DNA of 64,000 nt from a bacterium. GTDB lineage: Bacteria; Patescibacteriota; Saccharimonadia; UBA4664. Below the pieces are notes generated by a model. The model did no database searches and was not told where the DNA came from. It saw only the letters and a program-made list of their open reading frames with translations. A program made the translations under genes and the position numbers. The stretch spans positions 1,074,715-1,138,714 of the forward strand of contig CP064960.1 in NCBI GenBank assembly GCA_016699105.1, given 5' to 3'. Every line of letters begins with the position of its first letter. The first letter of the stretch is position 1. This document shows positions 4,801 to 63,953 of this stretch, in pieces.

Positions 4801-6063
4801 CTGAAGTCTTACTCTTGGCGATAGTCGGCGTAGTCTGCACTAGGCCGCCGTTGGTCAAAGACAGCCAATTCGAGCCATCGTAGCCTTCAAAGTCGCTCCC
4901 ATTCCAGCGAATTGTACCAGTATTTGTACCTGCTGATGTCCCAATACGGAGTGCACCGGCTACGTCTAATGCTTCACTTGGACCGGCTGTACCGATGCCC
5001 ACACGGTTATTTTGAGTATCGACATTAAATGTTGGTGTACTGGTACCATCTGGTATGACTTGGAAAGCAGTTGTTGAATTAAAACTTGTGCCGGATTTAA
5101 TAATTACATTCTTGGCCGACGAACTGGTCGTAATTTGGGCAGGACTCGCCGAATTATCGTAGACGTCTTGAAGTGTGGCGGCCGTTGAACAAGCAGCAAA
5201 TCCCAGTACTCCGGCACCGGTGGTGTCCTTCAGACAATCGCCGGCAGTCGTTAATGCAGTGGGCAATGTTAATGCAAACGTGCTAGCAGTGGCACCACTC
5301 TGAAGAGTCAACGTATTGGCATTGGTGGCGTTGTTAAACAATACAGCACCAGTATTACCAGCTGGGCCAGCAGTGCCTAACGTGAGAGTGCTAGCGCCGG
5401 TAAAGGTTGCGCTAGCTCCCTGAACAGTACCAGTTGCTTGCAAGTTTCCGCCAGCAAGTAGATCACCAGATATGTCAATGTCTCCTGCTTGCGTTGCACC
5501 TGGAGTGAGCTGGACAAAAGCATCAGAATCGAGTCCATCAAGGGTGTCGGCTTGCATAGCATAGGGCGAGCTAGCAACCCGGCGCCGGGGGTCATGGGGC
5601 CTTCCGTAAAGACAGCACAACCATTGGTAGCACAGGTGGCAGTGGCCGGCGTTGGAAGTTCGACTTCAAGATAAAGGTTGGCGTACGTTTGGGTGTTGAA
5701 GAGACTGGGACTGAGAGCTGGGTCGCCTTTCGTTGCGTCCCAAACTGGACATTGAATAATCCATTCGTGACTGTCACTCGGTAGTCGGAGGCGCCATAGA
5801 CCCGGCTACCTTGCCAACGATTCGTACCCCCGGTAAGTGCATCGTAGAGCGTAAACCTGATGTTGTAGTCACCGTTGGCAACCGTAGTACCAGCTGTATT
5901 GGTGAGGCGGCCCTGGAAGTTGATTAGATATGGAACCGTCTGTGCAGATTGCGCTTCTGGCGCTTGGGTCATTTGTAGACACAGCAAATAAGGCTGTGAG
6001 AATTAGACCGGTGATTGTCAGGGCTGATTGAACCCGGACTTTCAGATGTCTGCGTAACGCCAT
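1896..6063 (-). pseudogene. Giant secreted Thr/Ser/Gly/Asn-rich fibre/adhesin-like protein (~1380 aa) split into at least 8 overlapping ORFs
   Basis: The contiguous minus-strand ORFs 5869..6063 (signal peptide MALRRHLKVRVQSALTITGLILTALFA), 5592..5987, 4523..5620, 3875..4522, 3546..3941, 3215..3646, 2815..3108, 2622..2822 and 1896..2618 overlap end to end. Low-complexity G/T/S/N-rich repeats such as QNL(F/D)TGNVD recur through them. Confidence 0.45.
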
Positions 6064-23932: not shown

Positions 23933-24586
23933 TTAATATTTATAGGGAATCTGGCCGAGCTCCCAAGGAGCAGACAGAGCCAATTGTAGGGAACGAATCT
24001 GAGACCGAAAAGTTAATATATCGCCTTTGGCGCTGAGGGTCTGGGCCTCAGCTCTGGTAGCCGGAACATCCGGATCAACACCGTAGACAGTGCGGACATC
24101 GAGCGCATCAGTCTTCTGCCAGAATTCCACGCGCAGATGGTCACTTATTCCTATTTTGAGGTTTTTGTCGACCGCCTGACCTGAACCCGAGTATATACCC
24201 GACTCATTCAACACACTAATCCAGTTACTAATCACGAAGGTCCACAATTGTCCAGAACTGGTCCGGACCTGGACTTCCCTGTCGTCGAGCTTGATGATGC
24301 TGCCATATACCTCACGAATGATCGCGCCAGCAGGGATGTCGTTCTCAGGTGGCAGGTATGAGCCGAAGTCATAGATCGCCGGGAGTACAGGACAGAAATC
24401 ATCGATGTTATTAAAGCACAGGCCGTCAGGGCGGCGCAAAGCATGGCCCACGCTCACTTGGGTTGCCGCTTGCACGTCGGGCAGCGTATAGGTGGGCTTG
24501 GCAATATATGCGGCTGTTATACCATTCGTGCTCGGTGCCACCAAAATGAAGTCACCCGGTCGGAGTTCCAGTCGCGGCACCGGCAT
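23933..24586 (-). CDS. Hypothetical protein
   Basis: 217-aa ORF, co-oriented within the sigma/anti-sigma operon. Confidence 0.4.
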   Translation of the reverse strand: MPVPRLELRPGDFILVAPSTNGITAAYIAKPTYTLPDVQAATQVSVGHALRRPDGLCFNNIDDFCPVLPAIYDFGSYLPPENDIPAGAIIREVYGSIIKLDDREVQVRTSSGQLWTFVISNWISVLNESGIYSGSGQAVDKNLKIGISDHLRVEFWQKTDALDVRTVYGVDPDVPATRAEAQTLSAKGDILTFRSQIRSLQLALSAPWELGQIPYKY

Positions 24587-24672
24587 CAGGCCGATATATT
24601 GAACGGTGGCTGCGTCAATGACGAGTTCGTTGGGAGAGATTGGATCGCCGCTACCCAGATACCATTCAAATT

Positions 24673-25356
24673 TTATGCTAGTATTTGTGTAACTAACGAC
24701 CCGACAGGCGCAGGAGTTTGGCCTCCGTCAGCGCCGCGCTGTACAGGCAGGGTGTTTGTTATTTTGTTTAAGTTTGTCATCTCTGCCTGTGCCCGAATTT
24801 GAGTATCGGTGAGCCCAGCTGGAAATTCAAAGGTTTGGCCTTCAATAACGGTTTCTTGCTTGCCGATACTATTGATTATCCGCTCGAGCTGCATAAAGGC
24901 CGGGCCTGGTTCGGGACTAGAGGTAACAGCGGCGTAAGCTCCGGCCGATACACTAAGGCTGCCGATCACTAGAGCGCCGGCCAAAGTCGCAGGTCGCACC
25001 ACCCTAGCCCTCCGAGTCAGCCATGTTTGTCCAACCGCCAGCGCGATCACGCTTGCAAAAGCTGCGACGGCCATCCAGGGCACAGTTTCGCCGAGGGCTT
25101 GTATAAATATTGGCAGGTGCTGGCGTACAGTGGCCCATTGCTGCCAGCCAAGCTGCACCACGCGCACGCTTGAACTACGGGTCAGTGCTATAATGAGCGT
25201 AATTAAGGCTACTATCACCAGGAACCACAGAGCTCGCCGGATCATCCGCGCCCGGCGCTTGGCGGTAGTAATCTGGGAGAGCACGGGCTGCACCAGTGAC
25301 CGGCGAGGTACAAGCTGCGGCTCGAGGCGATCCAAAATGTTAGTTAATGATTCCAT
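24673..25356 (-). CDS. Putative membrane anti-sigma factor
   Basis: It overlaps the ECF sigma gene end and has a single TM segment ALWFLVIVALITLIIAL after a short cytoplasmic N-terminus. Confidence 0.4.
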   Translation of the reverse strand: MESLTNILDRLEPQLVPRRSLVQPVLSQITTAKRRARMIRRALWFLVIVALITLIIALTRSSSVRVVQLGWQQWATVRQHLPIFIQALGETVPWMAVAAFASVIALAVGQTWLTRRARVVRPATLAGALVIGSLSVSAGAYAAVTSSPEPGPAFMQLERIINSIGKQETVIEGQTFEFPAGLTDTQIRAQAEMTNLNKITNTLPVQRGADGGQTPAPVGSLVTQILA

Positions 25357-27973: not shown

Positions 27974-28024
27974 ATTCTGAGTATAACATATCAGTCCACA
28001 CCAATTGGTGTGAATTATTATTTT

Positions 28025-28460
28025 GGTGCGCGAGAGAGGAGTGTGTCTCGGCAAAGCCTCGCCACGCTTCGCCGGATTACCGGCTCGCCCGAACTAGCTT
28101 TTCTATTGTGCCGGTTCGACCCGTTCGTTACATACCAAAGCAAAACTCCCCTGGCGGGGAGATTTGCTTTGGTGCGCGAGAGGAGTGTGTCTCGGCAAAG
28201 CCTCGCCACGCTTCGCCGGATTACCGGCTCGCCCGAACTAGCTTTTCTATTGTGCCGGTTCGACCCGTTCGTTACATACCAAAGCAAAACTCCCTGGCGG
28301 GGGAGGTTTGCTTTGGTGCGCGAGAGAAGAGTGTGTCTCGGCAAAGCCTCGCCACGCTTCGCCGGATTACCGGCTCGCCCGAACCAGCTTTTCTATTGTG
28401 TCGGTTCGACCCGTTCGTTACATACCAAAGCAAAACTCCCCTGGCGGGGAGGTTTGCTTT
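28025..28460. repeat. Tandem array of 3 units of ~145 bp, each a degenerate partial tRNA-Leu copy plus a terminator-like hairpin
   Basis: The units are 28025..28170, 28171..28314 and 28315..28460. Each begins (plus strand) with ggtgcgcgagagaggag, the reverse complement of the tRNA-Leu 3' acceptor/T-stem. Each contains the hairpin aaagcaaaactcccctggcggggagatttgcttt and a ggtat.cacg-like D-loop remnant. The units are more than 95% identical to each other. Confidence 0.8.
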
Positions 28461-28462
28461 AG

Positions 28463-28544
28463 TGCGCGAGAGAGGAGTCGAACCTCCACGCCTTGCGGCA
28501 CCTGCCCCTCAGACAGGCGTGTATACCATTTCACCACTCGCGCG
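28463..28544 (-). tRNA. tRNA-Leu (anticodon GAG), CCA not encoded
   Basis: The reverse complement folds as GCGCGAG-TG-GTGAAATGGTATACAC-G-CCTGT-CTGAGGG-GCAGG-TGCCGCAAGGCGT (long variable arm)-GGAGG-TTCGACT-CCTCT-CTCGCGC-A. Confidence 0.85.
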
Positions 28545-28966: not shown

Positions 28967-30588
28967 TTAGTGCAATGTTAGTTGATGATGATGGTGTCCG
29001 AATTGATAGTTGGAAAGTAAGAGTTTTTTTAACGATTCGAGAGTTGCGTGTGTTTTGTGGTCAGGGCTAAAAACGGTATATGGATCACAAATATCTTTTA
29101 CTTTGCCCATCAGATCAGCAAGCTCGTCACCATATATATCGGCTATTGCCCATCCATGCACCAATCCATCGCCCGCCGTACCACTAGGAGTACCGCCGAG
29201 TTTGGCGATTAGTTTAGTGTATTCCCGCATAAGAATAAGTAGCTTGTCGGTATCTTTCTTTTGGATAAATTTAAACGCGGTAAAAATTCAAATTGCCATC
29301 GCCAACATGACCCCAGATAGCTGCGGTTAGGTCGTGGCTACCCAATAGATGAGTGGTTTTAGTAAGCAATTCAGATAATTTTGCGGATGGAACCACTGCG
29401 CCTTCCATGAATGATATTGCCTGATTCGAACCCGGCGGTTCCAAATATTGAGCGGCGGCTGAGCGCAATTTCCACAGAGCTACCTGCTCCAGCGGATCAC
29501 GAGCAGTGCGAATCGTTGCGCCGTAGCGTTTGAGTATATTCTCGGCTCTCGTGGAGGCTACTCGTTGACCAAGCTGAGACATATTATCAAATTGGACCAG
29601 TAATGCCGTAGTAGGTTCATCGTTTGGCAATAATCCATCGAGAAATCCAGGATGACTTATAGAAACGGCTTCGAGAAGTCCCCTGTCAGCTAATTCGAGT
29701 GCAGACGGCTTGAGTTTCACAACACGACTGGCGGCCTCTAGCGCTTGTGCCGTTGCCGAGAAGTAACCGACTACTAATGTTGTACGTGGATTATACACAT
29801 ATGTGCTGAGAGTAATTTCTGTGATTATTCCGAGCGCACCTCCTGAACCGATAAAGAGCTGACCTAGATCAAACATATTACCGCGACGTACCCTTTTCAA
29901 GAGCGAAGCCCAAATTGTTGTAAGGCAATTTCGGAGTGGCGGCTCTGATCAACTCTTCATGATCGAGAAGTATATTGTCGATATCTCGATAGATTTGACC
30001 TTCAAGCGTGGTTAATCCTTTGCGGGCGCGTAGCTGTCGTGCTGTCAGTGGTTTGGTTTCGATAAGTGAGCCATCCGACAGTACTACTTTGAGTCCGCGT
30101 ACGTACTGACGGATCGATCCGTATTTAACTGCATGCAATCCTGGCGATTCTTCGGCAACGGCACCACCGATAGTGGTACCGTCAAGATTGAGCGGCAAGC
30201 ATGGAATGTGCCGTCCGTGAGACATGAGCGTTTGCTCAAGTGTCCGAAATGTGACACCTGACTGAACGGTGACTGTGCGTTTATCGAGTTTCAATATTTT
30301 GTTCATGTGAGCAGGTAGTACTATTTGGATTGCCGATGCAACTGCACCGCCACTTAGACCCATTCCGAGACCGCGAGCTATCACTGGAGTTGGATTAGTA
30401 GAAGAGATATGATCTGCCGCAAACTGAACCGTTTTACGAACATCAGCCGTATTTGCCGGGTACACGATTGCCATTGGTTCGGCAGTAACGATACTGTTAT
30501 CAGTAGCTAATTGGCGCAAAGCACCTGGCTGGTCGGTAGCCGCTCCGAGGAGGCGGGCTTGAAGCTCTCGCATGTAAGGCTTTCTCAT
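28967..30588 (-). pseudogene. FAD-linked oxidase (GlcD / D-lactate dehydrogenase-like), split into 3 ORFs
   Basis: 29878..30762 carries the FAD_binding_4-like domain (GLGMGLSGGAV...). 29271..29900 and 28967..29230 carry the C-terminal oxidase domain in two further frames. Confidence 0.65.
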
Positions 30589-30642
30589 ACTTCTATGATA
30601 CGGCGCGGCGCGGCGCCAATACAAGCCGCTTGTGCTACGATA

Positions 30643-31281
30643 ATGACTATGAATCAGCAGACAACATCCGCACTGGCAAATGCCCGGCAGAACGTAGAAG
30701 CTGATGCTTGCGATCAACGAGTAATGCCAGCATTTCGGACACGCTTGTTTGAGCCGCAACATTCAGTAGTTGGCGCTGTTCTCCTTTTGCCAGGTTACAC
30801 TTCACCGACGGATCAATTCGCTGATCTTGCTCAGATACTGGCGGATCGTGGCTACTATGCGTACATCCCACGTGCGCCGCGTCATGGAGTAGTTGACGGA
30901 CCACTAAGAATTGCGCCAACAGCCCCAGAGCTACAAGCGTATGCACGATCGGGTGCTGATATTGTTATGCGGCTATGTCCAGGTTCGAGTGGTGCGATTG
31001 GACTTAGTGGTGGAGCGGTTCTAGCTGCTTGGCTAACGGCTCAATCAGATATACAATTGAATCGACTTCTCCTTTTGAATCCATTTCTGGAACCGGCTCG
31101 TCGCCTCGTGCCGAAGTGGCGACTACATTTACTGCTTGCAATCTATGGTACACAGCGATGGCTGCCGGATAGACCCGATCCAACGCATGAGGCACGCACA
31201 TTTGCCGGACTCGCCAGCTACTTATTGCTTGCTCGATCGATCCCCGACAACTCTTACCTATACATATTGACGCCGCATTAA
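30643..31281 (+). CDS. Alpha/beta-hydrolase fold protein
   Basis: VLLLPGYTSP is followed by GLSGGAVLAAWL, a GxSxG-like nucleophile elbow. It is divergent from the oxidase gene. Confidence 0.5.
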   Translation: MTMNQQTTSALANARQNVEADACDQRVMPAFRTRLFEPQHSVVGAVLLLPGYTSPTDQFADLAQILADRGYYAYIPRAPRHGVVDGPLRIAPTAPELQAYARSGADIVMRLCPGSSGAIGLSGGAVLAAWLTAQSDIQLNRLLLLNPFLEPARRLVPKWRLHLLLAIYGTQRWLPDRPDPTHEARTFAGLASYLLLARSIPDNSYLYILTPH

Positions 31282-31440: not shown

Positions 31441-32484
31441 ATGATGAATATGCTAATGTTTATTGTTGTCAATCAACAGGTTTTCAATTATGAAAAAATC
31501 CGACATTTCCTCAAGCCTAAACCCGTAAGATCTGGAATGACTGCAACATTTGTTATCACAGCTATGGTTAGCGGTGCTATCATCTACATGGCAACTCGTG
31601 CAGCTGATCAGTCTATTTCGGCTGAGGCAGAACTGGCTAGACTATCCGGAAGTGCCACCACAGTAAATGACGCCGGAGCCAGCGGAGGAAGAGCCGTTGT
31701 ATTCGGTAATCTTGCTACGCCACTACCAACTCCGACGCCAACACCAACACCGAGCACGTCAATTAGTCCACTACCATTTGGTTACGGGGCCGCCAACGGT
31801 CCAAATGGCACATGGAACCTCAAATTAAATGATAACTTCGACGGCAGTACTCTTGATACATCGATTTGGTCAACTGGTTGGCACGGATCAGGCATTACGC
31901 CCCCAAACCAGTCCCAAGAGCTAGCTTGCTATGACCCAAATCAAGTAGTGCTCGACAACGGTATCTTGCGCCTCAAGATTGACGTCAAGGCTACCAATTG
32001 TAATGGTACCCGGCCGTATATTTCAGGTGCTATTAATACCGAGAATAAGCGCGCCTATAGTTATGGGTACTTTGAGGCGCGCATCTGGTTGGACGCTAGT
32101 AGCAATGCCGTGTATAACTGGCCAGCCTGGTGGCTCAATGGTGACAGTTGGCCGACTACCGGCGAAGTAGATATCATGGAAGGATTAAGCGGTACAGCTC
32201 GCGCCAATTGGCATGGGCCTGAAGGCAATGGTGCTGGTTACGAGCTTGGAAATGGCGGAGTTATGGGCGGCTGGCATGTGTTTGCAGCTGAGTGGGCACC
32301 TGGTAAAATGGTGTCCTACTATGATGGTAAGTTGTTGGGATCATATTCGTCGAATAGTAATGTCACCTCGGCGCCGCAATACCTAATTCTTATGGCTCAG
32401 ATGAGCCCTCAAGATCGCTATGGTGGGCCAATCAAGGCACCAAGCGAAATGGATATTGATTATGTGCGAGTTTGGCAACGATAG
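31441..32484 (+). CDS. Secreted GH16-family glycoside hydrolase (beta-glucanase/laminarinase-like)
   Basis: The catalytic motif ExDxxE appears as GEVDIMEG. There is a signal-anchor and a PTPTPTPTPS linker. The probable start is near 31537 (MTATFVITAMV). Confidence 0.7.
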   Translation: MMNMLMFIVVNQQVFNYEKIRHFLKPKPVRSGMTATFVITAMVSGAIIYMATRAADQSISAEAELARLSGSATTVNDAGASGGRAVVFGNLATPLPTPTPTPTPSTSISPLPFGYGAANGPNGTWNLKLNDNFDGSTLDTSIWSTGWHGSGITPPNQSQELACYDPNQVVLDNGILRLKIDVKATNCNGTRPYISGAINTENKRAYSYGYFEARIWLDASSNAVYNWPAWWLNGDSWPTTGEVDIMEGLSGTARANWHGPEGNGAGYELGNGGVMGGWHVFAAEWAPGKMVSYYDGKLLGSYSSNSNVTSAPQYLILMAQMSPQDRYGGPIKAPSEMDIDYVRVWQR

Positions 32485-32514
32485 TTGACTGATGCCAGCC
32501 AGGGGTGCAGCTGA

Positions 32515-32600
32515 CCCAACCCTAACCCGCCTGGGCGCACGCAATACTCCCACCCGGGAATAACGTCATCAGGCGGGGTATTGGCATGGATTAAACCCAT
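32515..32600. repeat. ~86-bp dyad-containing element, copy 1 (copy 2 at 33808..33893)
   Basis: Copy 1 is cccaaccctaacccgcctgggcgcacgcaatactcccacccgggaataacgtcatcaggcggggtattggcatggattaaacccat and copy 2 is cccaaccctaaccccgcctggggcgcacgcaatactcccgcccgggaatacgtcatcaggcggggtatttgcgtgggttaacccat. An inverted repeat cccgcctgg/ccaggcggg brackets a cccggg core. Confidence 0.45.
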
Positions 32601-32948
32601 TTCGCTCAGAACCTAGCAATAATTATAATTTGGTGGTATAACCAGGCTATGGCGGTCCCATCCGGGCCGCTTGTTCCGATTCGTCCCAACAAAGGGGAAA
32701 CGCGTGACCGACGAGCGACCAACCTTAACAATCTCAACCATGACATCCGGACCCCATAAAGCCACCTACCTAGTAGCCACCAGCAACACCGAGCTATTTG
32801 ACCTATATGATCTGACAATGTCGGGGCTATGGGCGGAGCTTAATAAATACCCAGCTACTTGTGCGGCCGTCCGGTGTATTGAACTCTGCCGCGGTCGGGC
32901 GGAAATCAGCTGTGGCTTGAGTTTGATGCCGATGCCACCGAAGGCATT

Positions 32949-33776
32949 TTGGGTGACGCTGCGTCGGCGGTTCATCGCTGGGTCGATGACATAAAGCAAA
33001 GCCAGCTTCCGATCAAAGTTGTTCATGCCGACACGCCAGCAGCTGAACAGCTCAGCGGTTACTGGGTCATCACCTCATCCAGCCTGCTGCTTCGTCCAAG
33101 TGGCAGTGACGACAAACGCGGCTGGATTGAGCTCATCTATGTTGGGGCCGCCACGCAGCTGATCGAAGACCTGGTGATCCGGGCTGCCTGTGCAACCGGA
33201 ATGGTTCACACCGATCCTGACTCGGCGCCTCAGATCACGAATGGTGTGTTGGAGTATGGCCCCATCAGTCCGTATGCCATCGATCACGAAAGATTCGCTT
33301 TGCGTCTTCAAGCCGAGATCCGCACAACACTATCGTCGGGGTCGATCGTCGGCATCACCGTGGCTAGAGTAATCTGCCCGGTCGATACTGTCGACCAGAT
33401 CCCGCCGACCGTCACGCTGCTACATCAAGAGCAACGGGGCGATCACCGCGTGGTCGTGGGTGCTAACTTCCGGTTGACGGCCGGACTAAAACCAGATATG
33501 GCTTACAATCGTCCGGAGGCGCCCGGCATCTATCCACACAGCTGGCCGTATCTCGTCCAGCTCCTGTATCAGAAGATCTACGAAGCGGGCATATTCAATG
33601 TTGTTGAGCAGATTCGCGTCATCACAACTGAAACTGGTGCCGGTCAGCTCGTCTTCGTCGTCGATCCCTATGAACAGGATGGATATCAGGAAGCCTTAGG
33701 CCAGGCCGTTGCGCGAGCGGCCGTACTGTTCCTGGGTGACCGAGCCGTGGTCGATGTGGTAAGTCCGGTCTCATAA
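32949..33776 (+). CDS. Hypothetical protein (275 aa), possibly N-terminally extended by the frameshifted ORF 32671..32994
   Basis: The long ORF lies between the two copies of the dyad element. No recognisable domain was found. Confidence 0.4.
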   Translation: MGDAASAVHRWVDDIKQSQLPIKVVHADTPAAEQLSGYWVITSSSLLLRPSGSDDKRGWIELIYVGAATQLIEDLVIRAACATGMVHTDPDSAPQITNGVLEYGPISPYAIDHERFALRLQAEIRTTLSSGSIVGITVARVICPVDTVDQIPPTVTLLHQEQRGDHRVVVGANFRLTAGLKPDMAYNRPEAPGIYPHSWPYLVQLLYQKIYEAGIFNVVEQIRVITTETGAGQLVFVVDPYEQDGYQEALGQAVARAAVLFLGDRAVVDVVSPVS

Positions 33777-33899
33777 CGCTCCCACCCCCGCCGGACGTAC
33801 CCGCCAGCCCAACCCTAACCCCGCCTGGGGCGCACGCAATACTCCCGCCCGGGAATACGTCATCAGGCGGGGTATTTGCGTGGGTTAACCCATATCGCT

Positions 33900-36617
33900 A
33901 TGGCTCGGTTCAACGCGGTCTTGAACCAGCTGCTGCAGCCCAGCGAACTGGTTCTGTCTGCCGCCGAGAAAGCCTCACAGCACAGGCAGGCCTGGCAAAA
34001 GCAGTACCACTTCGAATATACGACAAAAATTTTATCAAGACCGCAAGATAAGTATGATAGTGTAAGACTTATGAGCGAGATGCCTGAGAATAATGAGCAG
34101 CAGATATTCGGCTCACTTGATCTGCAACCTGAGTTGTTAACTCACCATGTGCCACCTGAGACTGAGCCCTCAAACATTGCTCCGCAAGAAGCTATCACTC
34201 AGATAGACGCAGTCGGCCCTGATTCGGCCATTGACGCACACCAGCTCGTTGATTGGATAGTGGCGGCCGAGCATGCACCCGATTCGGACTTATCAATCCA
34301 GCTTGAGAAAATGCGATCCTGGCGTTCTCCCGGCGACCAATATCGCATCAACCAGCCGAATAAATTAGCGCTCGATGCTACTATCATTGGTTTGGTTGCA
34401 ACAAGGCATGCAAAACTCGCCGAGAAACTTATTTCATCGTCCCAGCAAGAACTCCAAAATTTGCGCTTTGCCACTAGTCTATACGCCGAGCGCAATGGAC
34501 TAGACGAGGCGGCCAAATTAGCGATCGAGAGAGAAATAAATTCAATTGTACAAAGAAACCGTACAGCATTACTCTCCAGAATGACTATCAGTTCTGCCCC
34601 CGAAGGTTTTGCTGCCGTTGTGGTCGATCGAGCGGCCAATCCTGATAGTGCCGGTGCGATCTCCGAAGCGCAATGGCAACTCATAGGCCAGCTTGGCTCT
34701 GAGGCGCAAGCTTCCCTTCTCGCGAGCAGCCGAATGGATCGGACAGCTTGCGGGATCCAAGACCTTGACACTCATGGCTTGCTCGGTGATATGCCGATTC
34801 TGATAGGCCGCATTGACCAACTTGATGATCGTGATCAAACCGAAGCTTATCTGACGGAATACGGGCAAGCCGTCGGCAAACTCGCCGAAATGCAGCAATC
34901 CGGCCAGGAGCTACGTCTGCCTATTATTAAGCGAGAACTAGCTCAGTTTGCGCAGCCGGATCAGGCATTGGCGGCCAGTGAAGCGATCTATGGCGATCTA
35001 CCGCTCGATGTTGCCACAAGCAAACTGGCCGACTTATTTCGTGATCCGGCTCATCAACAAGACCTGGTGCCGGTTGACCCTCAAATACTTGCACAACTAA
35101 CTATGGCTCGAGTTCGTTTTGACGATTTGGGTGTTTTGGATGATCTGCTTCCACCTCTTTTGGACCGCATTCGCGATTCTACAGATCAACCACAGTTGGT
35201 CGAGGATATACTGACGGCAGTGGCGGCGGCACAAGCGCTCAAGGGTGAGCGACTGTTATACTTGGATCCAGTTATCCAGACAGATCACCCCGCAGAATTG
35301 GCAGCTAGTCTAGCCAAAGTCACGGGTTTGGCCGAGCCAATGAATGATCCAACCCGCGCCGAGCTCCTTCGAGCTATTACCGATGCCCCCTCTGCTCCGC
35401 AAGCCGTAGATATGCTTCAGTCTTGCAGCCAAGCTCTAGCGTCGCGGAGCCTAAAATTTGATAGTGAGTCCGATATTACGATATCTGACATGCTGCGACA
35501 ACTCTCCCCAGTAGCCGAACAGGTGTCCGAGGCTGACCCGCAAGTGCGAGCCGACCGTTTGTCGCAAGCTGCCGAGCGAATTGCTAGTAACTACCTCGTA
35601 GCGCGGGAGATTACTGATATTTACAACAAGAATTATGGTGAAGCAATATCTCTCGCAAAGGGCAGGCGAGCCGTGTTGTCCGATTGTCCAGAAATCGCCC
35701 GCCGAATGGCAGATATTGGGTGCAGTGGAGACGATGCTAATCGAATGTTTTCGACCTGGTCGTATCACAGTGAATATGCAATGGCATCATATGCCCGTGC
35801 GCAACGAGGCGAGGGTAAGGTTACACTTAATATGCTACCCGCGTTAGTAAACCTACAGCGCCAGCATATCGAAAAAAATCTGCGGAGTTATGAGGACTAC
35901 GTAGCTCGGTTTGGATCCGAAGAGGCACGCGAGATTATGACAATGTTCAAGATTACCAACTTTGAGCATGTGGGAGTAGATTTACTACATGACCAATTGG
36001 AACGATGGCGCTCCGGCGAACGGCCAGTTGAAAATCTTATGATTGTTTCTCGTGCCGACTGGAACGGAGCGAACTCCAACGCCGGACAAGATACGCAGGA
36101 GGTTTTCAAAGACACAAACTTTTTTGTTTTTGAAGCGGGTAGTGCCCGAGATCTCGACGACATTCGCCGCGCGGTTAAGGATCGCGAATTAAGTCATGGT
36201 CGAGTTCCCAAAGAGGAGAATGCAGTGAAAAATGTTGTGATCCACGCGCATGCCAATCCAGATGGTATTCTCTTGGGGTTAGATGGAGAAGCCATTAATG
36301 TCGGTCAGTATCTTAAGTTGCAAAAGCTTCCAAACGCCCGTGCTCGCACGTACGAAGAGGAGCTCGGCTCTGCCTACCGCATTATTATCCAGGCATGTAG
36401 TACGAAAGGTGAAAATACTAGTCGTTTCCTGATTGGTGCAGACGGTAGACTCGTCCCAGGTCCAAATATTGCAGCTACAATCCATGAATATCACCAACGC
36501 ACCGTTGAGTCATCGCCTGTACCCACCGTAGGTAATATCGTCACAGACGAGAATGATAAGGTTTGGTTCGGCATCGCGGGAGGCTACTTAGAAAGCACGC
36601 CCTACGAAAAGGTGTAA
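33900..36617 (+). CDS. Large (~905 aa) protein with alpha-helical N-terminal region and predicted C-terminal caspase-like (clan CD, CHAT/C14-like) His-Cys peptidase domain
   Basis: Three C-terminal strands match the caspase-hemoglobinase fold: NLMIVSRADW (first strand plus Arg), NVVIHAHANPDGILLGLDG (His strand) and YRIIIQACSTKGE (QAC-type Cys strand). Their spacing is about 70 and 48 aa. No P-loop was found. The likely start is ATG 33900, immediately after dyad-element copy 2. Confidence 0.55.
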   Translation: MARFNAVLNQLLQPSELVLSAAEKASQHRQAWQKQYHFEYTTKILSRPQDKYDSVRLMSEMPENNEQQIFGSLDLQPELLTHHVPPETEPSNIAPQEAITQIDAVGPDSAIDAHQLVDWIVAAEHAPDSDLSIQLEKMRSWRSPGDQYRINQPNKLALDATIIGLVATRHAKLAEKLISSSQQELQNLRFATSLYAERNGLDEAAKLAIEREINSIVQRNRTALLSRMTISSAPEGFAAVVVDRAANPDSAGAISEAQWQLIGQLGSEAQASLLASSRMDRTACGIQDLDTHGLLGDMPILIGRIDQLDDRDQTEAYLTEYGQAVGKLAEMQQSGQELRLPIIKRELAQFAQPDQALAASEAIYGDLPLDVATSKLADLFRDPAHQQDLVPVDPQILAQLTMARVRFDDLGVLDDLLPPLLDRIRDSTDQPQLVEDILTAVAAAQALKGERLLYLDPVIQTDHPAELAASLAKVTGLAEPMNDPTRAELLRAITDAPSAPQAVDMLQSCSQALASRSLKFDSESDITISDMLRQLSPVAEQVSEADPQVRADRLSQAAERIASNYLVAREITDIYNKNYGEAISLAKGRRAVLSDCPEIARRMADIGCSGDDANRMFSTWSYHSEYAMASYARAQRGEGKVTLNMLPALVNLQRQHIEKNLRSYEDYVARFGSEEAREIMTMFKITNFEHVGVDLLHDQLERWRSGERPVENLMIVSRADWNGANSNAGQDTQEVFKDTNFFVFEAGSARDLDDIRRAVKDRELSHGRVPKEENAVKNVVIHAHANPDGILLGLDGEAINVGQYLKLQKLPNARARTYEEELGSAYRIIIQACSTKGENTSRFLIGADGRLVPGPNIAATIHEYHQRTVESSPVPTVGNIVTDENDKVWFGIAGGYLESTPYEKV

Positions 36618-36761
36618 ATCTTTCGTTTGAACGGTGTACCTAAAACACAAACGCCCGTTCGCTGCTGGTATCTGAACCCTCAATAGTTGAAACGATTTTG
36701 AGAGTGTGGACAGCACCGTTTTTGGCAGCCGGAACCTTGAGATTGGCTTCAAATTGTCCGG

Positions 36762-37691
36762 TTAATTGGCTGTCGATTTTTGGTATAGTGAGCTGATTTC
36801 ACCTGGTGTGTTGGCCTCAAGATATTGACCGCCAGTGCCACTGGCAAGGGCATTGATGGTGGCGGGGTTAAAGCCTGTACCCTTTGATGCCAACCGCAAA
36901 TATGGGTAGGTTGGCTTTGGCAGCGGCGTCCTTGACACTGGCAAGGGTTGATTTTGAGGCAGTGTCTTCTCCATCAGTTAGTACGGTGATGGCTTTGCGA
37001 CCGCAAGCTGGCAGGTTGGTAATGGCTAAGTTGAGCGCATCATAGATAGCCGTATTGCCACCAGCGACCAAACCAGTAGCAGCCGACCGCGCGGCCGTTT
37101 TATTGGTCGATAGTCCGGCTCGCACTGATGCGGTCTGATTAAACTGAATTAGACCGACTTGGTCGTTTGGCTTGAGCCGGTCGATATAACTAGCGGCAGC
37201 TTGGCGGGCATTGCTGATCGCTGTACCAGACATACTACCCGACACATCGACGGCCAGCATATTAGCCAGTGGCGCTTGCGTTGTATTGACGGCATTGAAT
37301 TCGAAATCGTTCATTTCTTGGCCGTCAAGGTACACTTTGACATTCTTTTACTGAAGCTCGTGTTGACGTCACCAGATTGGGCACTTACCGAAACGTAGGC
37401 CGCAATACTGGACGCAGCACAGGTATCAATTTGGTTGATTCGGAGCGTCAGCCCCTTGAGGTTCTGAAACGATACCACACCGCCGCTGAGCGACGACACG
37501 GTTCCCTTGTTGAGGCTGGAGCCTGGGCCAGTACCATTATTTGATGCCTGGCCAGATGGCGTTGGGGTTGGGCTTGTGGTTTGGCTTGCTGGCTTGATGA
37601 GTAGTAGCATTGCTAGCAGCGCGATAATTACCATCAGTACAGCCCCAATAGCCGTCATCAGCCAGAATAATTTTGATTTCCGAATGACCAT
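36762..37691 (-). CDS. Membrane-anchored von Willebrand factor A (vWA) domain protein, split into 3 ORFs
   Basis: 37311..37691 carries an N-terminal TM segment. 36868..37335 carries the MIDAS motif DVSGSMSG and a vWA body. 36762..36974 carries the C-terminal vWA remainder. Confidence 0.6.
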
Positions 37692-40804: not shown

Positions 40805-41083
40805 CTATAAGTCATTCATGAAGTCTTCAACGGAGCTAAATTCTTTGATCTTGCCTGACTTTTTTTCCGCATCAAGATCGGCGATCATTTGCTCATAACG
40901 AGCATTGGCTTCTGGGCTTAAAACAACAGCCTTGCCGTCAAAGTCGAGCTTTCGACCGTCTGCCTCGGCTTTTGCCCACACGCGGATATAGGCCTGGGCA
41001 GAATCAAAACCGAGGCTGCGTGCACGGCGCTCTAGGCCATCGCGAACATCTTGATCAATAGGGATTTGTAACTTGGTATTCAT
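40805..41083 (-). CDS. RelB/DinJ-like antitoxin
   Basis: 92 aa, encoded upstream of the toxin. A direct repeat aaatggtat x2 and a tataaat box lie in 41095..41135. Confidence 0.6.
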   Translation of the reverse strand: MNTKLQIPIDQDVRDGLERRARSLGFDSAQAYIRVWAKAEADGRKLDFDGKAVVLSPEANARYEQMIADLDAEKKSGKIKEFSSVEDFMNDL

Positions 41084-41277
41084 AGTACTTAAATGGTATC
41101 AAAATGGTATATAAATGTCAAAAGATAGACAATCTACAACGAAGACAAAGAGACGAACCAATTTGGCCGTCTTCTTATCTGTAAATTATTCCTGGTGCGC
41201 GAGTGCGACGTTAGATGGAACCACATTGAGACGTGCATTCTGCTGATGTATCAAAAACTAGAAGCTCTTGGCTTCAC

Positions 41278-42000
41278 TTATCGAGACGGTGAGATTTGGC
41301 CGCCCCGAACTACGATGCCACGGCCGCTGAAAAACTTCTTAAATTCGTTAAAGTTCACAGCTGCGTATTCTTGGGTCTCTTTTGAAATACCAGATGGATT
41401 GTGTAGATAGAATTCTTGTTTGGGCTTATCGTAACCCACCATAAGCACAAGATGCCCGCCTTTCGTCTTGGGCTTACTGTCTGGATATCGAATCCACGGG
41501 CTAACTCCAGCGATCACAAAGTTGCCTTTGCTGAGTTCATGAGTAAGTTCCTGTAAGGTGATACCCTGAACAACTCTCGCTTTCCATCCAAGCTCTTTTT
41601 CAACGTACGAAATGTAGGGCTTGTAGTAGAGACCCGCCGAATTTTCTAGTGGCATAACGTATCCACCGTACTCGGTGCATTTTGTGCCGAGCTCAACAAG
41701 CGGCACGATCTTGCCGGTGCGGTACGCTAGAATCATCTTTGTGCAGGCCATGCCGCAGGCGCTCCAGCTCCAGTCGTGGTACTCCTTTTTAGTCTTCGCT
41801 CCTGACTTCTTCCAATTTGGGTCGTCGTCGGTACTGATTTTCTTCTCAAGAATCGATTTCGCTAGTTCGCGCGATTCCCATTGGCAAAAATATGGCACGT
41901 CTTCATAAACAAATCGATCGGGCGCGGGGAGAGGCCGTATAAAATACTTAACTCGTTTAGCGTGATGAAGTAGGTGGTTTTTTATGTTTCTCATCTGCAC
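41278..42000 (-). CDS. Peptidase C39-like (papain-fold cysteine peptidase) domain protein
   Basis: The Cys block WSACGMACTKMIL, the His block GGHLVLMVGYD and FYLHNPSG are present. Confidence 0.6.
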   Translation of the reverse strand: MQMRNIKNHLLHHAKRVKYFIRPLPAPDRFVYEDVPYFCQWESRELAKSILEKKISTDDDPNWKKSGAKTKKEYHDWSWSACGMACTKMILAYRTGKIVPLVELGTKCTEYGGYVMPLENSAGLYYKPYISYVEKELGWKARVVQGITLQELTHELSKGNFVIAGVSPWIRYPDSKPKTKGGHLVLMVGYDKPKQEFYLHNPSGISKETQEYAAVNFNEFKKFFSGRGIVVRGGQISPSR

Positions 42001-42123
42001 TCAGAATACCAGATTTAGCCGGAAAGGACTTGAACACGCATCAACAGATTACGATTACAAAAAGAAAAGTTCCAGAAATAGATTCTGGAACTTTTCTATC
42101 TGGAATATTTTGAATAATATCCT

Positions 42124-42268
42124 GGTGCGCGAGAGAGGAGGGTGGCTCAGCAAGCTTCGCCACGCTTCGCCGGATTACCGGTTCGCCCGAACCCGCATAT
42201 TTTCTGCGTCGGTTCGACTCGTTCGTTACATACCAAAGCAAAACTCCCCTGGTGGGGAGATTTGCTTT
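42124..42268. repeat. Dispersed copy of the ~145-bp tRNA-Leu-derived repeat unit
   Basis: It begins ggtgcgcgagagaggag and ends with the hairpin aaagcaaaactcccctggtggggagatttgcttt. Further copies are at 42891..43030 (truncated), 44767..44915 (plus a partial copy at 44916..44931) and 45825..45984 (divergent, adjacent to tRNA-Leu CAG). Confidence 0.75.
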
Positions 42269-42306
42269 GGTGCGCGAGTGCGACGTTAGCTGGAACTAAA
42301 TTGAGG

Positions 42307-42840
42307 CTAGTTTTGCGCCCGTCCGTTCATGAGGAATTCATAGGTAGCGTCGCAACGGAGTTTCTGAGCGCTAACCTGTCCCTCAACGAAGGCCGGATCG
42401 GTGCGGATATCAATTTGGATGGGGTCGCGATCGGTATATTCAATGAGTAGGCGAGCGGGGTCATAGTTCCAGGTTACTTTCTCAATCGTACAGTACCCGA
42501 ATGCGGCGATGATATCGTCGTTGCGGGCATTGCGTTGAATATTACTCTGTAGGAAGAAAGCAGCCGAGATGGAGCCGAAAGTTAGGGTTAACCAAAAGAG
42601 GCCAAGATAGACATTAAGAATTCTAGGGTGCGTCTTTAGCCACCGCCCCAATAGTATGCTTAGCGCGAGAAAGGTAATGGCGCCAATTAAATATGCTAGT
42701 GCAGCTACCACGCTCAGGCCGCTGTCGGTACCCGTGACCGTGATTGTCGTATATATGGTTAATCCGACAAGCACAATTGTAATGGCGGTCAGAAACCAAA
42801 TATAAACTTTCCAGCTTTGGAGAAACCGCATGATAACCAT
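42307..42840 (-). CDS. Integral membrane protein (4 TM)
   Basis: 177 aa with 4 hydrophobic helices. Confidence 0.45.
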   Translation of the reverse strand: MVIMRFLQSWKVYIWFLTAITIVLVGLTIYTTITVTGTDSGLSVVAALAYLIGAITFLALSILLGRWLKTHPRILNVYLGLFWLTLTFGSISAAFFLQSNIQRNARNDDIIAAFGYCTIEKVTWNYDPARLLIEYTDRDPIQIDIRTDPAFVEGQVSAQKLRCDATYEFLMNGRAQN

Positions 42841-43018
42841 AGGATTATTCTAGCGCATATAATCAAATTATCCCCGGCGGATTAGGCCTTGGTGCGCGAG
42901 AGAGGAGGGCGTCTTGGCATAGCTTCGCCACGCTTCGCGCGATTACGCGCTCGCCCGAACCCGCATATCTTCTGCGTCGGTTCGACTCCACCACTTTTGC
43001 CTACCAATGCTACATTAG

Positions 43019-43426
43019 GTGGAGCCACATTATTCTTTTATAGTTAATATCATAGCCTATGAGATGCATCTGACGAGGTATAATTCGACTATGGATCAGA
43101 CTGCTCCACCTACTTTATGCGAATCAAAAGCTGAGACGCCGAAGCAAGTCGTAAGCTTAGGCACTATAGCAGACTATCTAGTTAGCTACACACAAAAGTA
43201 CAGACAAGAATACGCTAGGCTAATCGAGGCACCCCCGAAAGGGGCTGGCTTCCCTGATATCGTTAAATCACCTTATCTTGAGCGCAGCAATGTAGCATTG
43301 TATGTGGCACGTGATGGTGCTGTCTTATTGGACGCTTCAGAGCCGGAATACGATTGGTATATAGCGGGTGGACCGGCGTTTATGGTAGATTACCCCGACC
43401 TAATTCGCGTGTGCCAGAGAGTATAA
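43019..43426 (+). CDS. Hypothetical protein
   Basis: 135-aa ORF immediately upstream of the DUF4263-like gene. Confidence 0.35.
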   Translation: MEPHYSFIVNIIAYEMHLTRYNSTMDQTAPPTLCESKAETPKQVVSLGTIADYLVSYTQKYRQEYARLIEAPPKGAGFPDIVKSPYLERSNVALYVARDGAVLLDASEPEYDWYIAGGPAFMVDYPDLIRVCQRV

Positions 43427-43546
43427 AATCCATCTTGCGCTCTGCGGGAATATTGGAAAACCAATTGGGATATATCGATTGGTATTTCCGCCGGAGAAAA
43501 TTCAAATGGTAATTGGTTAACAGATTTTCCGGCTGCTGTAGACCAA

Positions 43547-44518
43547 TTGTCGGTCTCAGTCCCTGACGGACCACAATTTAAGATCTTGAAGTTAGATGTG
43601 CCGTGGAATGAGCTGATTTCTCAACTAACCTTCGGCGCTTACGGCCCAATTCTTGATGTGCATTTGCCCTCTACCTCGAATATCAACTTCTGGCAGCCGA
43701 TGATCGTAAGAAAGCTGGGTTTTCTTACGGCCGATCGTGAGCATCGGAGATTTTTGCAGTATGCCGAATTTATTCGTCATACTGAGGACGCTGCATGGGA
43801 TAAAAGGGGTATTTGGGCTCGATCGAAGCTTGACGTTCAAAGAGACCTTGCAAATGCAATTGCAATGTCAGAAAAAGATGGGGCTACGATGTCATTCGGC
43901 GAAAATCAACATGATGTACTCATCCAAATTAGGGATCGACTTGCTCGCCTAGAGACAGCCGTAAAGGGGCTTGAGGAGCTGCTACTAAAGGACCCCGGGG
44001 ACGATGAACGGCTCTACCAGAAGTTTCTTGAAGATAATCCATTACTGATAGATATATATGGCGAGGTAATACCTAGGCCACGGCTTGTATATCCGAGAGA
44101 TACGTCACCCTTAGGTAAGACATATATTGAGCCCGATTTCATAGTGCGTAGACCAGGGAATCGGTATCGCTTAATTGAAATTGAACGCCCTTCAAAGAAG
44201 ATGGCCACAAAAGCCGGGCAAGCGCGTGCCGAGACAACGCAAGCTTCATTTCAAATCTCGGAGTTTAAGGATTTTATTAAAGAGCACCACGATGTTATCA
44301 AGGATAGATTTCCGGGAATCCATCGGGCGACAACAAGTACTATCATTATCAGTCGAGCTACTGAAGAGAGTTTTGGTGGTAGGTCCAATATAAGAAGGCA
44401 GCTCTTGCTTCTCGAGAGCCAACTGGGAGTAGAAGAGCTTCTGACGTATGATGATCTATTATCTCAGGCCAAAGTTGCATTACAACAACTTGCTGGTATC
44501 ACACCAGATGTTAGCTAG
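43547..44518 (+). CDS. Shedu/DUF4263-like PD-(D/E)xK-fold nuclease candidate
   Basis: The C-terminal block ERLYQKFLEDNPLLIDIYGEVIPRPRLVYPRDTSPLGKTYIEPDFIVRRPGNRYRLIEIERPS resembles the DUF4263 pattern (FLe.nPwLl ... PDF.l ... vvElKrp). The canonical Lys is replaced (EIER), so activity is uncertain. Confidence 0.4.
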   Translation: MSVSVPDGPQFKILKLDVPWNELISQLTFGAYGPILDVHLPSTSNINFWQPMIVRKLGFLTADREHRRFLQYAEFIRHTEDAAWDKRGIWARSKLDVQRDLANAIAMSEKDGATMSFGENQHDVLIQIRDRLARLETAVKGLEELLLKDPGDDERLYQKFLEDNPLLIDIYGEVIPRPRLVYPRDTSPLGKTYIEPDFIVRRPGNRYRLIEIERPSKKMATKAGQARAETTQASFQISEFKDFIKEHHDVIKDRFPGIHRATTSTIIISRATEESFGGRSNIRRQLLLLESQLGVEELLTYDDLLSQAKVALQQLAGITPDVS

Positions 44519-45108
44519 ACTGGCCTGAATGATCGTCATGGGTCAAGAATCCACCGGGGAATATTGACGATCTAGGGCCTTCTGGTGGAACAACAGTCAG
44601 ATTGACTACTCCGTACCTGTAACCCACTAACTAAAGCCGAGTATTTTGGGGTAATTTTCGATAAGGTTCCAACCTACCAAGAAATAGTTGATGGAACCAA
44701 AAATACCAGCCTTGTACCCGATATAAATCAGATATTTCAGCTGGCATTCTTGCCAAATAATTCATTGGTGCGCGAGAGAGGAGTGTGTCTCGGCATAGCC
44801 TCACCACGCTTCGCATGATTACATGCTCGCCCGAACCAGCTTTTTTATTATTGTGTCGGTTCGACTCGTTCGTTACCTACCAAAGCAAAACTCCCCTGGC
44901 GGGGAGGTTTGCTTTGGTGCGCGAAGTGACCTCAATTTGGAACACATTACAACCTCAATTGGTTGCTCTGGATAGTAAGCTAGGAGGATTTGGGCTTCAA
45001 ATCATTGAAGGGAAGACTACCTATCCTGAAGCATCAAACGAATTTGAGGACTCGGGGTAGGCCCGGCCCCGCGTCAGAATCAACACGGGAGCCGGGGCGG
45101 ACATGAGG

Positions 45109-62726: not shown

Positions 62727-62807
62727 GCCATTACTGTTTAATTGGTTTTAAGTATAACGGCACTGGTCTCGATGGTACAACTATACATGTTATGCTTAGA
62801 GGTAATT

Positions 62808-63953
62808 ATGAAGCGGGCGCGTTCTTCCCAGTGGCAAAAGTTCCAACCGATTGCGGTGATGCTGGCTGTGGCTTTATTGGGCGGTATGATGGCTTTATGG
62901 ACGCGCGCGGCCGGGTCTCTGGCGGCGTTTGAAGTTGAATCTGGTACCAAAAGTGGCACGGTGTCGACGGCGGCAGTGACCGGCGCAAGTGGCGGAAATG
63001 TCGTGCGATTTGGGAGCGCCAGTGATGATTTGCCAGCCAGTGTGAAATCGCAAGGCAATTACACTTTGCGCTGGAGTGATGATTTCGAAGGTTCGTCAGT
63101 GGATACCTCGAAATGGAACGTGCTCAACAACAGCAATTACGGCTCAGGCAATAATGAAGACCAGTGCTACAAGGCTGCCAATTCAACGGTTGCAGGCGGT
63201 ATCTTAAGTTTGACTGCCAAACGCGAAACCGTCTCAGGCTGTGGCACCAATCCGCAAGGTGGATCAAATTATTATTGGACATCTGGTGCGTTGACGACAC
63301 GAGCTATGGGTGGGTCTCTCACCTATGCTTTCACCGAGGGCTATGCCCAGGTTCGCATGAAAGCCCCGCGCGGCAATCCCTATTGGCCGGCGTTTTGGCT
63401 CGTCAGTACCGGCGAGTCGGGTCAACCGAGCTGGCCAGACTACGGCGAATTTGATGTCGTAGAATTGTATGGCGGCCATCCTGATTCAACCTATGGCACT
63501 TTGCATTACTCGTCGAGTGGACATGTCCAAACGTGGCCGAACCAGTACAACGTGGCTACCAAAAGCCCTAATTCGAACCAAGGCCAAGTAGTGCCACCAC
63601 TGGTCACTGGAGCTACCAACGATTGGCATACCTATGGGTTGTTGTGGACGTTTAATCGATTGACCTGGTATGTGGACGGTGTGCCATTCCAATACTTTGA
63701 CGGTACCAATAACACCATGTATACAGTAAGTGCTGGTGGTGTGGCTACTTCGATGAAGACTACCGGCGCACCATCGACAAACTTTTGGGCATTGCGGCAT
63801 GCCATTATTTTGAATCTGGCCTTTGGCGGCGATGGACCGAGCTATCACGGTTACACCGGATCAGATTCGAGTAGCGGGTATAACAATGGTAATTTAACGG
63901 CCGACCAGCCCGGCGTCATGCAAGTTGACTACGTTAGGGTTTGGCAAAAGTAA
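62808..63953 (+). CDS. Secreted GH16-family glycoside hydrolase, second copy
   Basis: The catalytic motif GEFDVVELYGG is present. A signal peptide MKRARSSQWQKFQPIAVMLAVALLGGMMALWTRAAG is present. Confidence 0.65.
   Translation: MKRARSSQWQKFQPIAVMLAVALLGGMMALWTRAAGSLAAFEVESGTKSGTVSTAAVTGASGGNVVRFGSASDDLPASVKSQGNYTLRWSDDFEGSSVDTSKWNVLNNSNYGSGNNEDQCYKAANSTVAGGILSLTAKRETVSGCGTNPQGGSNYYWTSGALTTRAMGGSLTYAFTEGYAQVRMKAPRGNPYWPAFWLVSTGESGQPSWPDYGEFDVVELYGGHPDSTYGTLHYSSSGHVQTWPNQYNVATKSPNSNQGQVVPPLVTGATNDWHTYGLLWTFNRLTWYVDGVPFQYFDGTNNTMYTVSAGGVATSMKTTGAPSTNFWALRHAIILNLAFGGDGPSYHGYTGSDSSSGYNNGNLTADQPGVMQVDYVRVWQK

Follow-up and report, generated by a model that had tools for sequence, protein, structure and literature searches.

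A duplicated stem-loop element around an orphan gene, next to a strain-variable gene, in a bacterium of the Saccharimonadia

The locus described here lies in a 64-kb window (contig CP064960.1, class Saccharimonadia; positions count from the first letter of this window) of a 1.32-Mb genome, and consists of three genes and two copies of a short repeated element, all on the + strand. The first gene encodes a GH16-family glycoside hydrolase (31441–32484) and is followed by copy 1 of the element (32515–32606), an orphan gene of 357 aa with a GTG start (32704–33776; protein P0002), copy 2 of the element (33808–33899) and a gene of 848 aa (34071–36617; QQR52265.1), whose open reading frame (ORF) extends upstream to an ATG at 33900 (905 aa) and a TTG at 33876 (913 aa), and which we refer to by this greatest length as the 913-aa gene. 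An initial annotation had described the locus as a two-gene unit, made up of a 275-aa gene and the 913-aa gene with the element in front of each, and had offered a shared repressor-controlled regulon, a structured 5' leader and a cassette bounded by a duplicated element as possible explanations.

The window comes from a long-read metagenome-assembled genome, and comparison with short-read assemblies from this organism or very close ones, which were found via the upstream protein, reveals that homopolymer and frameshift errors break up real genes in it. Four such assemblies were available: L006 (ENA, 2,379 bp, 99.5% identity to the window), L007 (a Logan assembly of the same or a very close organism), and L018 and L019 (a 24.5-kb contig and one of 5.8 kb, from two different samples), the last two being 96.5–99.9% identical to the window over aligned blocks and ~99% identical outside a divergent 5' part of the orphan gene. 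L006, L007 and L018 were used to correct copy 1 and the 357-aa gene. Copy 1 in the window is short of one C and one G, both in homopolymers, and after correction carries ACCCCGCCTGGGGCG, the same as copy 2; 32498–32532 is among the error-bearing stretches. The orphan gene lacks one base at 32886, as a result of which it is shown in the window as two halves of 107 and 275 aa (32704–32994 and 32949–33776), and the gene reported as 275 aa is actually one of 357 aa. Corrections of this kind are the practical yield of the analysis, namely that long-read frameshifts in the window divide genuine genes and that there is no two-gene unit.

The repeated element and its stem-loop

The two copies form a direct repeat with a start-to-start distance of 1,293 nt (94 alignment columns, 90.4% identity, E 1e-25; 87/94 or 92.6% identity between the corrected copies). 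The near-identical, same-orientation repeats of ~86 bp described initially are therefore real and slightly longer, at ~92 bp, and the orphan gene does lie in a segment, of 1.29 kb, bounded by long direct repeats. The leading 39 nt are the same in both copies and all seven differences fall within the last 55 columns (Fisher p = 0.04). Three CCCGCC boxes with a spacing of 21–24 nt can be recognised in the element, and the box motif is absent from the rest of the window. A coding role was rejected, as ORFs are kept between the copies on neither strand and an indel shifts the frame.

Searches for further copies in host DNA covered the window only. Two 19-mers of the element occur there exactly twice each (0.00–0.01 expected), and a profile of the element (nhmmer --max) recovers both copies with E-values of 7e-29 and 6e-28; no third copy was found in the 64 kb by 3-mismatch, blastn-short or nhmmer --max searches. 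One exact 19-mer searched against 185,579 GTDB species genomes, a different one searched against JGI metagenomes, and a 17-mer searched against viral contigs gave chance matches only, those of the two 19-mers having unrelated flanks, and plasmid and phage collections held neither a DNA nor a protein match. A generic repeat scattered over many unrelated loci, which would have spoken against a specific role, was thus not seen within the window or with the exact 19-mers in public collections.

These data bear on whether the element is one of the small non-autonomous repeats (MITE-, REP/REPIN- or Correia-like) that make up dispersed families, with two members 1.3 kb from each other by coincidence. 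Such a family would fit the size of the element, its internal inverted repeats and its intergenic place after stop codons, and the REP/REPIN and Correia/ERIC repeats are likewise short GC-rich hairpins found intergenically after stops, which could affect mRNA ends and serve recombination. Those families, however, have tens to hundreds of dispersed copies, and REPINs come with a RAYT transposase, whereas the 64-kb window holds two adjacent copies and neither a Y1/RAYT nor any other transposase was found in it. There are also no terminal inverted repeats at the ends of the element and no target-site duplications in the flanks of either copy, and two copies 1.3 kb apart are not what a sparse, randomly placed family would be expected to give. 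Together with the unrelated 19-mer matches, this makes a dispersed family quite unlikely.

Comparison with L006 adds a further peculiarity. Copy 2 is identical in L006 and the window, and five of the six substitutions between the two sequences lie inside 109 nt around copy 1 (P ~1e-6), as expected from a recombination or gene-conversion hotspot. The sites at which copy 1 of L006 differs from the window are explained neither by conversion from copy 2 nor by neutral drift; conversion from a third copy elsewhere, as a dispersed family would provide, could explain them.

Once corrected, the element folds as a 15-bp GC-rich stem, ACCCCGCCUGGGGCG / CGUC-A-UCAGGCGGGGU. In copy 2 this dyad spans 33818–33873, with arms at 33818–33832 (ACCCCGCCTGGGGCG) and 33858–33873 (CGTCATCAGGCGGGGT) and one bulge, and its counterpart in copy 1 has arms at 32525–32537 and 32564–32579; the inverted repeat noted initially is real and larger than first described. 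Within the 25-nt loop of copy 2 lies a small CCCG/CGGG hairpin, and the stem is followed by another short hairpin on its 3' side. Folding z-scores of the corrected 92–94-nt element are -2.7 (copy 2) and -2.4 (copy 1), against just -0.5 to -1.6 for uncorrected 111-nt pieces of the window. An alternative inverted repeat, CACGCAATACTCCCGCCCGG / CAGGCGGGGTATTTGCGTG (33833–33882; arms 33833–33852 and 33864–33882, 17 bp plus a bulge, 11-nt spacer), overlaps the dyad and is mutually exclusive with it; copy 2 has a strong version of it (-27.8 kcal/mol, z -4.2), whereas that of copy 1 is degenerate (-15.9 kcal/mol, z -0.5). Across the two copies and four assemblies there are ~12 variable sites, the seven copy differences among them, and none falls in the 31 bases of the dyad arms (chance P = 0.06 for seven sites; 0.012 was computed for 11 sites). 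The covariation check proposed for the dyad gave double (compensatory) changes in 0/26 predicted pairs, which, with arms that never vary, is uninformative on pairing.

No Rfam family matches in the window at gathering score, and at E <= 10 the region 32400–34000 gives just two chance miRNA/snoRNA matches; the element was accordingly rejected as a member of a known RNA family or riboswitch.

Both copies begin at a fixed distance past an upstream stop codon, 31 nt for copy 1 (GH16 stop, 32482–32484) and 32 nt for copy 2 (stop of the 357-aa gene, 33774–33776), and because of this position the stem-loop would most likely act in RNA to end or insulate the upstream transcript. The element might then be a plain 3' stem-loop, i.e. 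an atypical terminator or mRNA stabiliser that was passively copied along with an inserted gene and has no part in recombination. The fixed stop distance and the strong, conserved GC-rich stem followed by AUUUG or AUUGG are what such a structure would show. A canonical intrinsic terminator, on the other hand, has a short GC-rich stem, a loop of 3–8 nt and a run of T, and the scan for these, which found 26 elsewhere in the window against 15.9 expected, calls neither copy, given the 25-nt loop and weak U tract. A passive stem-loop would moreover leave both the substitution hotspot at copy 1 and the strain breakpoint in copy 2 (see below) unexplained, and we regard it as unlikely.

Gene starts, homologous loci and strain variation

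On their downstream side the copies are placed less uniformly, lying 97 nt (copy 1) and ~171 nt (copy 2) from the likely start of the next gene. A uniform stop distance combined with a non-uniform start distance argues against a common leader or operator. The 97 nt after copy 1 have a lower GC content and contain candidate expression signals of the 357-aa gene (32624–32697, + strand), which are consensus matches read off the sequence: TATAAT (32624–32629), the extended -10-like TGGTATAAC (32634–32642) and the Shine-Dalgarno-like AAAGGGG (32691–32697) before GTG 32704. With these signals placed after copy 1, expression of the orphan gene would seem to rely on a promoter and ribosome-binding site of its own, downstream of the element.

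Copy 2 had been reported to stop 6 nt before the ATG of the 913-aa gene, which suggested a leader. The similarity between the copies in fact reaches the base just before ATG 33900 (0 nt), and that codon is probably not the start. NCBI places the start at M58, which is ATG 34071, and in HMMER alignments the N-termini of homologues align to query residues 35–62; residues 1–88 are disordered in the AlphaFold model. Four of six homologues have a -10-like hexamer 6–10 nt before their ATG without a Shine-Dalgarno sequence, and ATG 34071 shows a homologue-like pattern (TATGAT, then 12 nt) that ATG 33900 lacks. ATG 34071 is the probable start.

The orphan gene is compositionally foreign, its GC content at third codon positions (GC3) being 0.62 against 0.445 in the GH16 gene, which has a native-like composition, and 0.47 in the 913-aa gene. 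Its protein has no homologue beyond its own 90% cluster, which is made up of strain variants of 345–357 aa (345 aa in L018 and L019), and no match in Pfam, NCBIfam, PADLOC, PHROGs or PDB sequences. Tandem duplication was rejected as an origin of the two genes, there being no similarity between the 357-aa and 913-aa genes. Divergence between strains is concentrated near the 5' end of the orphan gene (32708–32815, compared with L018), a hotspot with a 12-nt in-frame deletion and 15 substitutions in ~110 nt; the remainder of the gene has nine.

Six homologous loci of the 913-aa gene, fetched among L008–L015 and encoding proteins with 25–34% identity to the query, were compared with the window. 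In each of them the homologue stands alone amid housekeeping genes (photolyase, Mur ligase, YchF, tRNA genes, Leu/Val-tRNA synthetase). An upstream relative of the 357-aa protein was found at none of the six, the genes upstream being unrelated, and the element is likewise present at none (searches included nhmmer). The proposed two-gene unit does not survive this comparison: homologues of the 913-aa gene are never paired with the orphan gene in the six loci, and L018 and L019 lack the 913-aa gene and keep the orphan gene. Nor did these loci, at this level of protein identity, share a conserved leader. A collinear similarity upstream of the closest homologue (L008) was rejected as chance, its rank p being ~0.006–0.018 against real-sequence windows, with no nhmmer match and the dyad not kept. 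In another of these loci (L010) the 1 kb upstream of the homologue (4966–6000) contains tRNA genes and repeated 'GATTAGCTTGA(G/A)TTG(A/G)CTGTC(A/G)AGCCTCGGCGAGCGATA' units, and a bAvd gene lies ~6 kb away.

Close strains differ at the locus by the presence of the 913-aa gene. L018 and L019 keep the GH16 gene, the whole of copy 1, the orphan gene and copy 2 up to GGGTT (33886), after which an unrelated 66-nt stretch and then a VWA gene follow in place of the 2,754 nt (33887–36640, + strand) that carry the 913-aa gene in the window. The flanks of the missing segment are 98.8–99.2% identical to the window. The left breakpoint lies inside copy 2, directly after GGGTT, and the right one 23 nt past the stop of the 913-aa gene; a position other than 33886 for the left breakpoint was considered and rejected, as the sequence that ends copy 2 in L018 shows no significant similarity to the end of copy 1 (p = 0.15). 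In the L018 and L019 strains the 913-aa gene has accessory status.

With these comparisons in hand, the suggestion that the element is a shared cis-regulatory one (an operator for one DNA-binding protein, a structured 5' leader or a riboswitch-like RNA) which co-regulates the 357-aa and 913-aa genes can be weighed. Dyad arms that are invariant amid loops and tails that vary, two mutually exclusive, attenuator-like pairings in copy 2 (a:c and b:c), three CCCGCC boxes at 21–24 nt spacing and a copy 2 that abuts ATG 33900 would all be in keeping with regulation. The b:c pairing is gone in copy 1, however, the window has no further occurrence of the box motif, invariant arms leave no covariation to measure, and Rfam offers no match to E <= 10. 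The start distances differ, -10-like boxes lie after copy 1, and the NCBI start, the homologue N-termini and the modelled disorder suggest that the 913-aa protein begins beyond ATG 33900. The genes are not co-conserved, sister strains have the element without the 913-aa gene, and the six homologous loci lack both the element and a conserved leader. The element is probably not the shared leader or operator of a two-gene unit, and co-regulation in any of these forms seems to us very unlikely. Of the explanations offered initially, the regulon and the leader find no support and the cassette bounded by a duplicated element fits; it is supported in part, by the strain-variable modular locus, the foreign orphan gene and the breakpoint in copy 2.

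Proposed gene exchange at the element

The reading that we tentatively favour, while holding it somewhat less likely to be right than wrong, takes the element for a lineage-specific stem-loop module placed where strain-variable single-gene modules join; there it would serve as a shared homology or recombination site and probably also as a transcript-end hairpin. The locus would then be laid out as GH16 gene, element, orphan 357-aa gene, element, and either the 913-aa gene or the 66-nt filler. The element may offer common homology (39 identical bases, ~79 nearly identical) at which incoming DNA with another copy could recombine, either homologously or in a site-specific manner near GTT, with modules being gained, exchanged or lost beside it; the duplication would be the footprint of such an event. 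As direct repeats, the two copies could also make the 1.29-kb segment with the orphan gene deletable.

A comparable behaviour is known from islets bounded by direct repeats and exchanged by homologous recombination. There, as here, whole-gene segments set between conserved flanks distinguish close strains, a repeat contains the end of one flank, and the gene between the repeats can be deleted through them; such islets are usually anchored in core genes, tRNA genes or insertion sequence copies, in contrast to the private 92-bp hairpin element of this locus.

Several observations weigh against gene exchange at the element. The ~45 window ORFs scanned, which include all of at least 300 aa, yielded no recombinase, transposase or reverse transcriptase, and no 'empty site', or strain without the 357-aa gene, was found among the assemblies compared. 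The segment with the 913-aa gene has no element at its 3' end, and loss of this gene takes the form of a 66-nt replacement, not of a clean excision. As a transcript end the stem-loop is not a canonical terminator, with its 25-nt loop and weak U tail, yet the genome has canonical ones. The cluster of L006 substitutions could be a metagenome-assembly chimera at the repeat, and the copy count, which covers 64 kb of the 1.32-Mb genome, is compatible with a dispersed family.

Site-specific exchange would find a precedent if the element were an attC-like site of an integrase-less integron-type cassette array ('CALIN'), with exchange at the G/TT of a 3' core. We think this improbable, and give no better prospects to the broader proposal of a cassette system, integron-like or otherwise hairpin-site-specific, with the element as its recombination site, in which a recombinase encoded elsewhere would insert and excise accessory genes at GTT and the attC-like sites would be non-canonical. 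The cores of attC sites follow the consensus RYYYAAC on the 5' side (R'') and GTTRRRY on the 3' side (R'), the two being mutually complementary. At the 5' boundary both copies fit (ACCCAAC and GCCCAAC), with a 5-nt spacer before the inner arm, the strain breakpoint comes directly after GGGTT, and GTTGAGT in copy 2 of L018 fits the 3' consensus. The 3' core is only partly present in the other cases, however (ATTAAAC in copy 1, GTTAACC in copy 2 of the window), the spacing is asymmetric, at 5 nt on the 5' side and 11 nt on the 3' side, and similarity between the copies runs 13 nt beyond GTT.

The layout of the locus likewise speaks both for and against an attC site. A CALIN is defined by at least two same-strand sites within 4 kb, each after a cassette ORF, with no integrase nearby (PMC4889954), and the locus has two same-strand copies within that distance, both immediately downstream of an ORF. 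At 92 nt the element is inside the attC size range, and like the sites of integrons and CALINs it is an imperfect palindrome (~60–140 nt in attC) after consecutive same-strand ORFs, with highly similar copies within an array and orphan or accessory genes as cassettes (Cury et al. 2016, PMC4889954). It differs in that the last 'cassette', with the 913-aa gene, has no site at its 3' end, that the 357-aa gene seems to have its own promoter, and that no integrase or other tyrosine recombinase (Phage_integrase/IntI) was found among the window ORFs scanned. Were a cassette system at work, single accessory genes, among them the orphan gene and a separase-like protease, would be moving in an uncultured small-genome bacterium.

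Other mobile systems were considered and rejected. For a diversity-generating retroelement, in which the variable repeat sits in the 3' end of a target gene and differences fall at adenines of the template repeat (TR), there is no reverse transcriptase match in the window, both copies are intergenic, 5/7 differences are at copy-1 adenines, two of these being indels, and the would-be TR copy varies between strains; IS200/IS605-PATE, dif/IMEX and res sites have motifs unlike those seen here, and neither TnpA/TnpB nor a recombinase turned up.

If gene exchange at the joints marked by the element is the right reading, the locus shows how strains with a small genome can trade accessory genes one at a time at a private hairpin repeat, without visible mobile machinery, and it is a concrete place to test cassette exchange. 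The locus is a modest, lineage-specific case of repeat-bounded gene flux, and fairly ordinary as genome plasticity goes.

The downstream protein and other features of the window

The protein encoded by the 913-aa gene has a sole match, the NCBI entry QQR52265.1 ('hypothetical protein IPG36_06945 [bacterium]'), and none in Pfam, NCBIfam, PADLOC, PHROG or PDB sequences; looking up the exact sequences of the 905-, 848- and 913-aa proteins and the GH16 protein gave no match. Exhaustive HMMER searches (E <= 1e-3) gather a family of 101 representatives, with 23–39% identity and mostly 800–1,030 aa in length, and a homologue search seeded with the family alignment returned the query itself alone. This family (P0003–P0102) is undescribed, comprises ~100 clusters at 50% identity without a Pfam, NCBIfam, PADLOC or PHROG model, and merits a family model of its own.

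In the full-length model (pLDDT 87.6) residues 95–705 form an all-helical repeat region and residues 712–905 (nt 36033–36617) an alpha/beta domain. Within the latter, alignments of 41 and 64 sequences show no variation at His784 (36249–36251; VVIHAHANPDG) or Cys833 (36396–36398; RIIIQACSTKG), and both residues lie at strand ends in the model. They provide the His-Gly and Ala-Cys dyad, each part after a hydrophobic beta-strand, by which clan CD peptidases are recognised. The best Foldseek matches in the PDB to the isolated domain (pLDDT 95.3) are PIGK/GPI8, caspase-7, caspase-3 and procaspase-8, with probabilities of 0.84–0.99 but at weak levels (E 2e-3 to 7e-2, TM ~0.4). None of the Pfam clan-CD models (CHAT, Peptidase_C14, C13) matches among the 64 family members, and DUF4347 matches weakly in two of the 64 (best E 3e-4). 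The C-terminal domain is a probable clan-CD protease domain; the earlier label 'caspase-like' draws weak support from the invariant His/Cys pair and from the weak matches to caspases and PIGK, and none from Pfam.

Clan CD also includes peptidases with a large helical N-terminus, such as separase (C50) and TPR-CHAT/Csx29, which the protein resembles in combining ~600 aa of helical repeats with a C-terminal alpha/beta domain and in its invariant 'hydrophobic-strand-H-G ... hydrophobic-strand-A-C' pattern, the two motifs being 49 residues apart. It differs in that separase and CHAT structures are outside the top Foldseek matches of the domain and in that the gene has no CRISPR or defence context. 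A helical region followed by a C-terminal caspase-like domain is the arrangement of separase (PMC4626109), and a place for the protein in either the separase or the TPR-CHAT group would be by analogy only.

Long-read errors also divide other genes of the window. The VWA gene (36868–37691) has 350 aa in L018 and L019 and 155 + 126 aa in the window, a FAD-linked oxidase (29271–30762) has 535 aa in L018 and 209 + 294 aa in the window, and a gene of 474 aa (23933–25356) is broken into 217 + 227 aa. A second GH16 gene (62742–63953) is 27% identical to the one at 31441–32484, and the 47 nt left in the window after it contain no element.

A second strain-variable island of the window is a 3.7-kb segment (41203–44914) that is missing from L018 and carries a Peptidase_C39-like gene, two small ORFs and a Shedu (SduA_C) defence gene. 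It is joined to its surroundings at local repeats, copies of a tRNA-like unit among them, and the two sides of the join overlap by 10 nt. These units, of ~146 nt and on the - strand, form a family at 28022–28478, 42123–42278 and 44765–44924, with a partial copy at 42886–42988; three are in tandem beside tRNA-Leu(GAG) (28462–28543), where L018 has one unit, and the others are dispersed. Each consists of a canonical terminator hairpin (CTCCCCGCCAGGGGAG + TTTTGCTTTG) and a body of ~100 nt ending in ...ACUCCUCUCUCGCGCACCA, an end that matches the 3' end of the real tRNA-Leu, but with CCA encoded. Compensatory double changes are seen in an internal hairpin, GCCGG-UAAU-CCGGC, in which CATG, or GCGC in the partial copy, replaces CCGG. 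The units are recognised as tRNA by neither ARAGORN nor Rfam. They may represent small-RNA genes of tRNA origin, or else att-type sites that were duplicated. Lastly, a small ORF at 40805–41083 (- strand), which in its window version has no Pfam match at E <= 0.01, has a counterpart in L019 (5283–5549) that matches YafQ_toxin/ParE_toxin.

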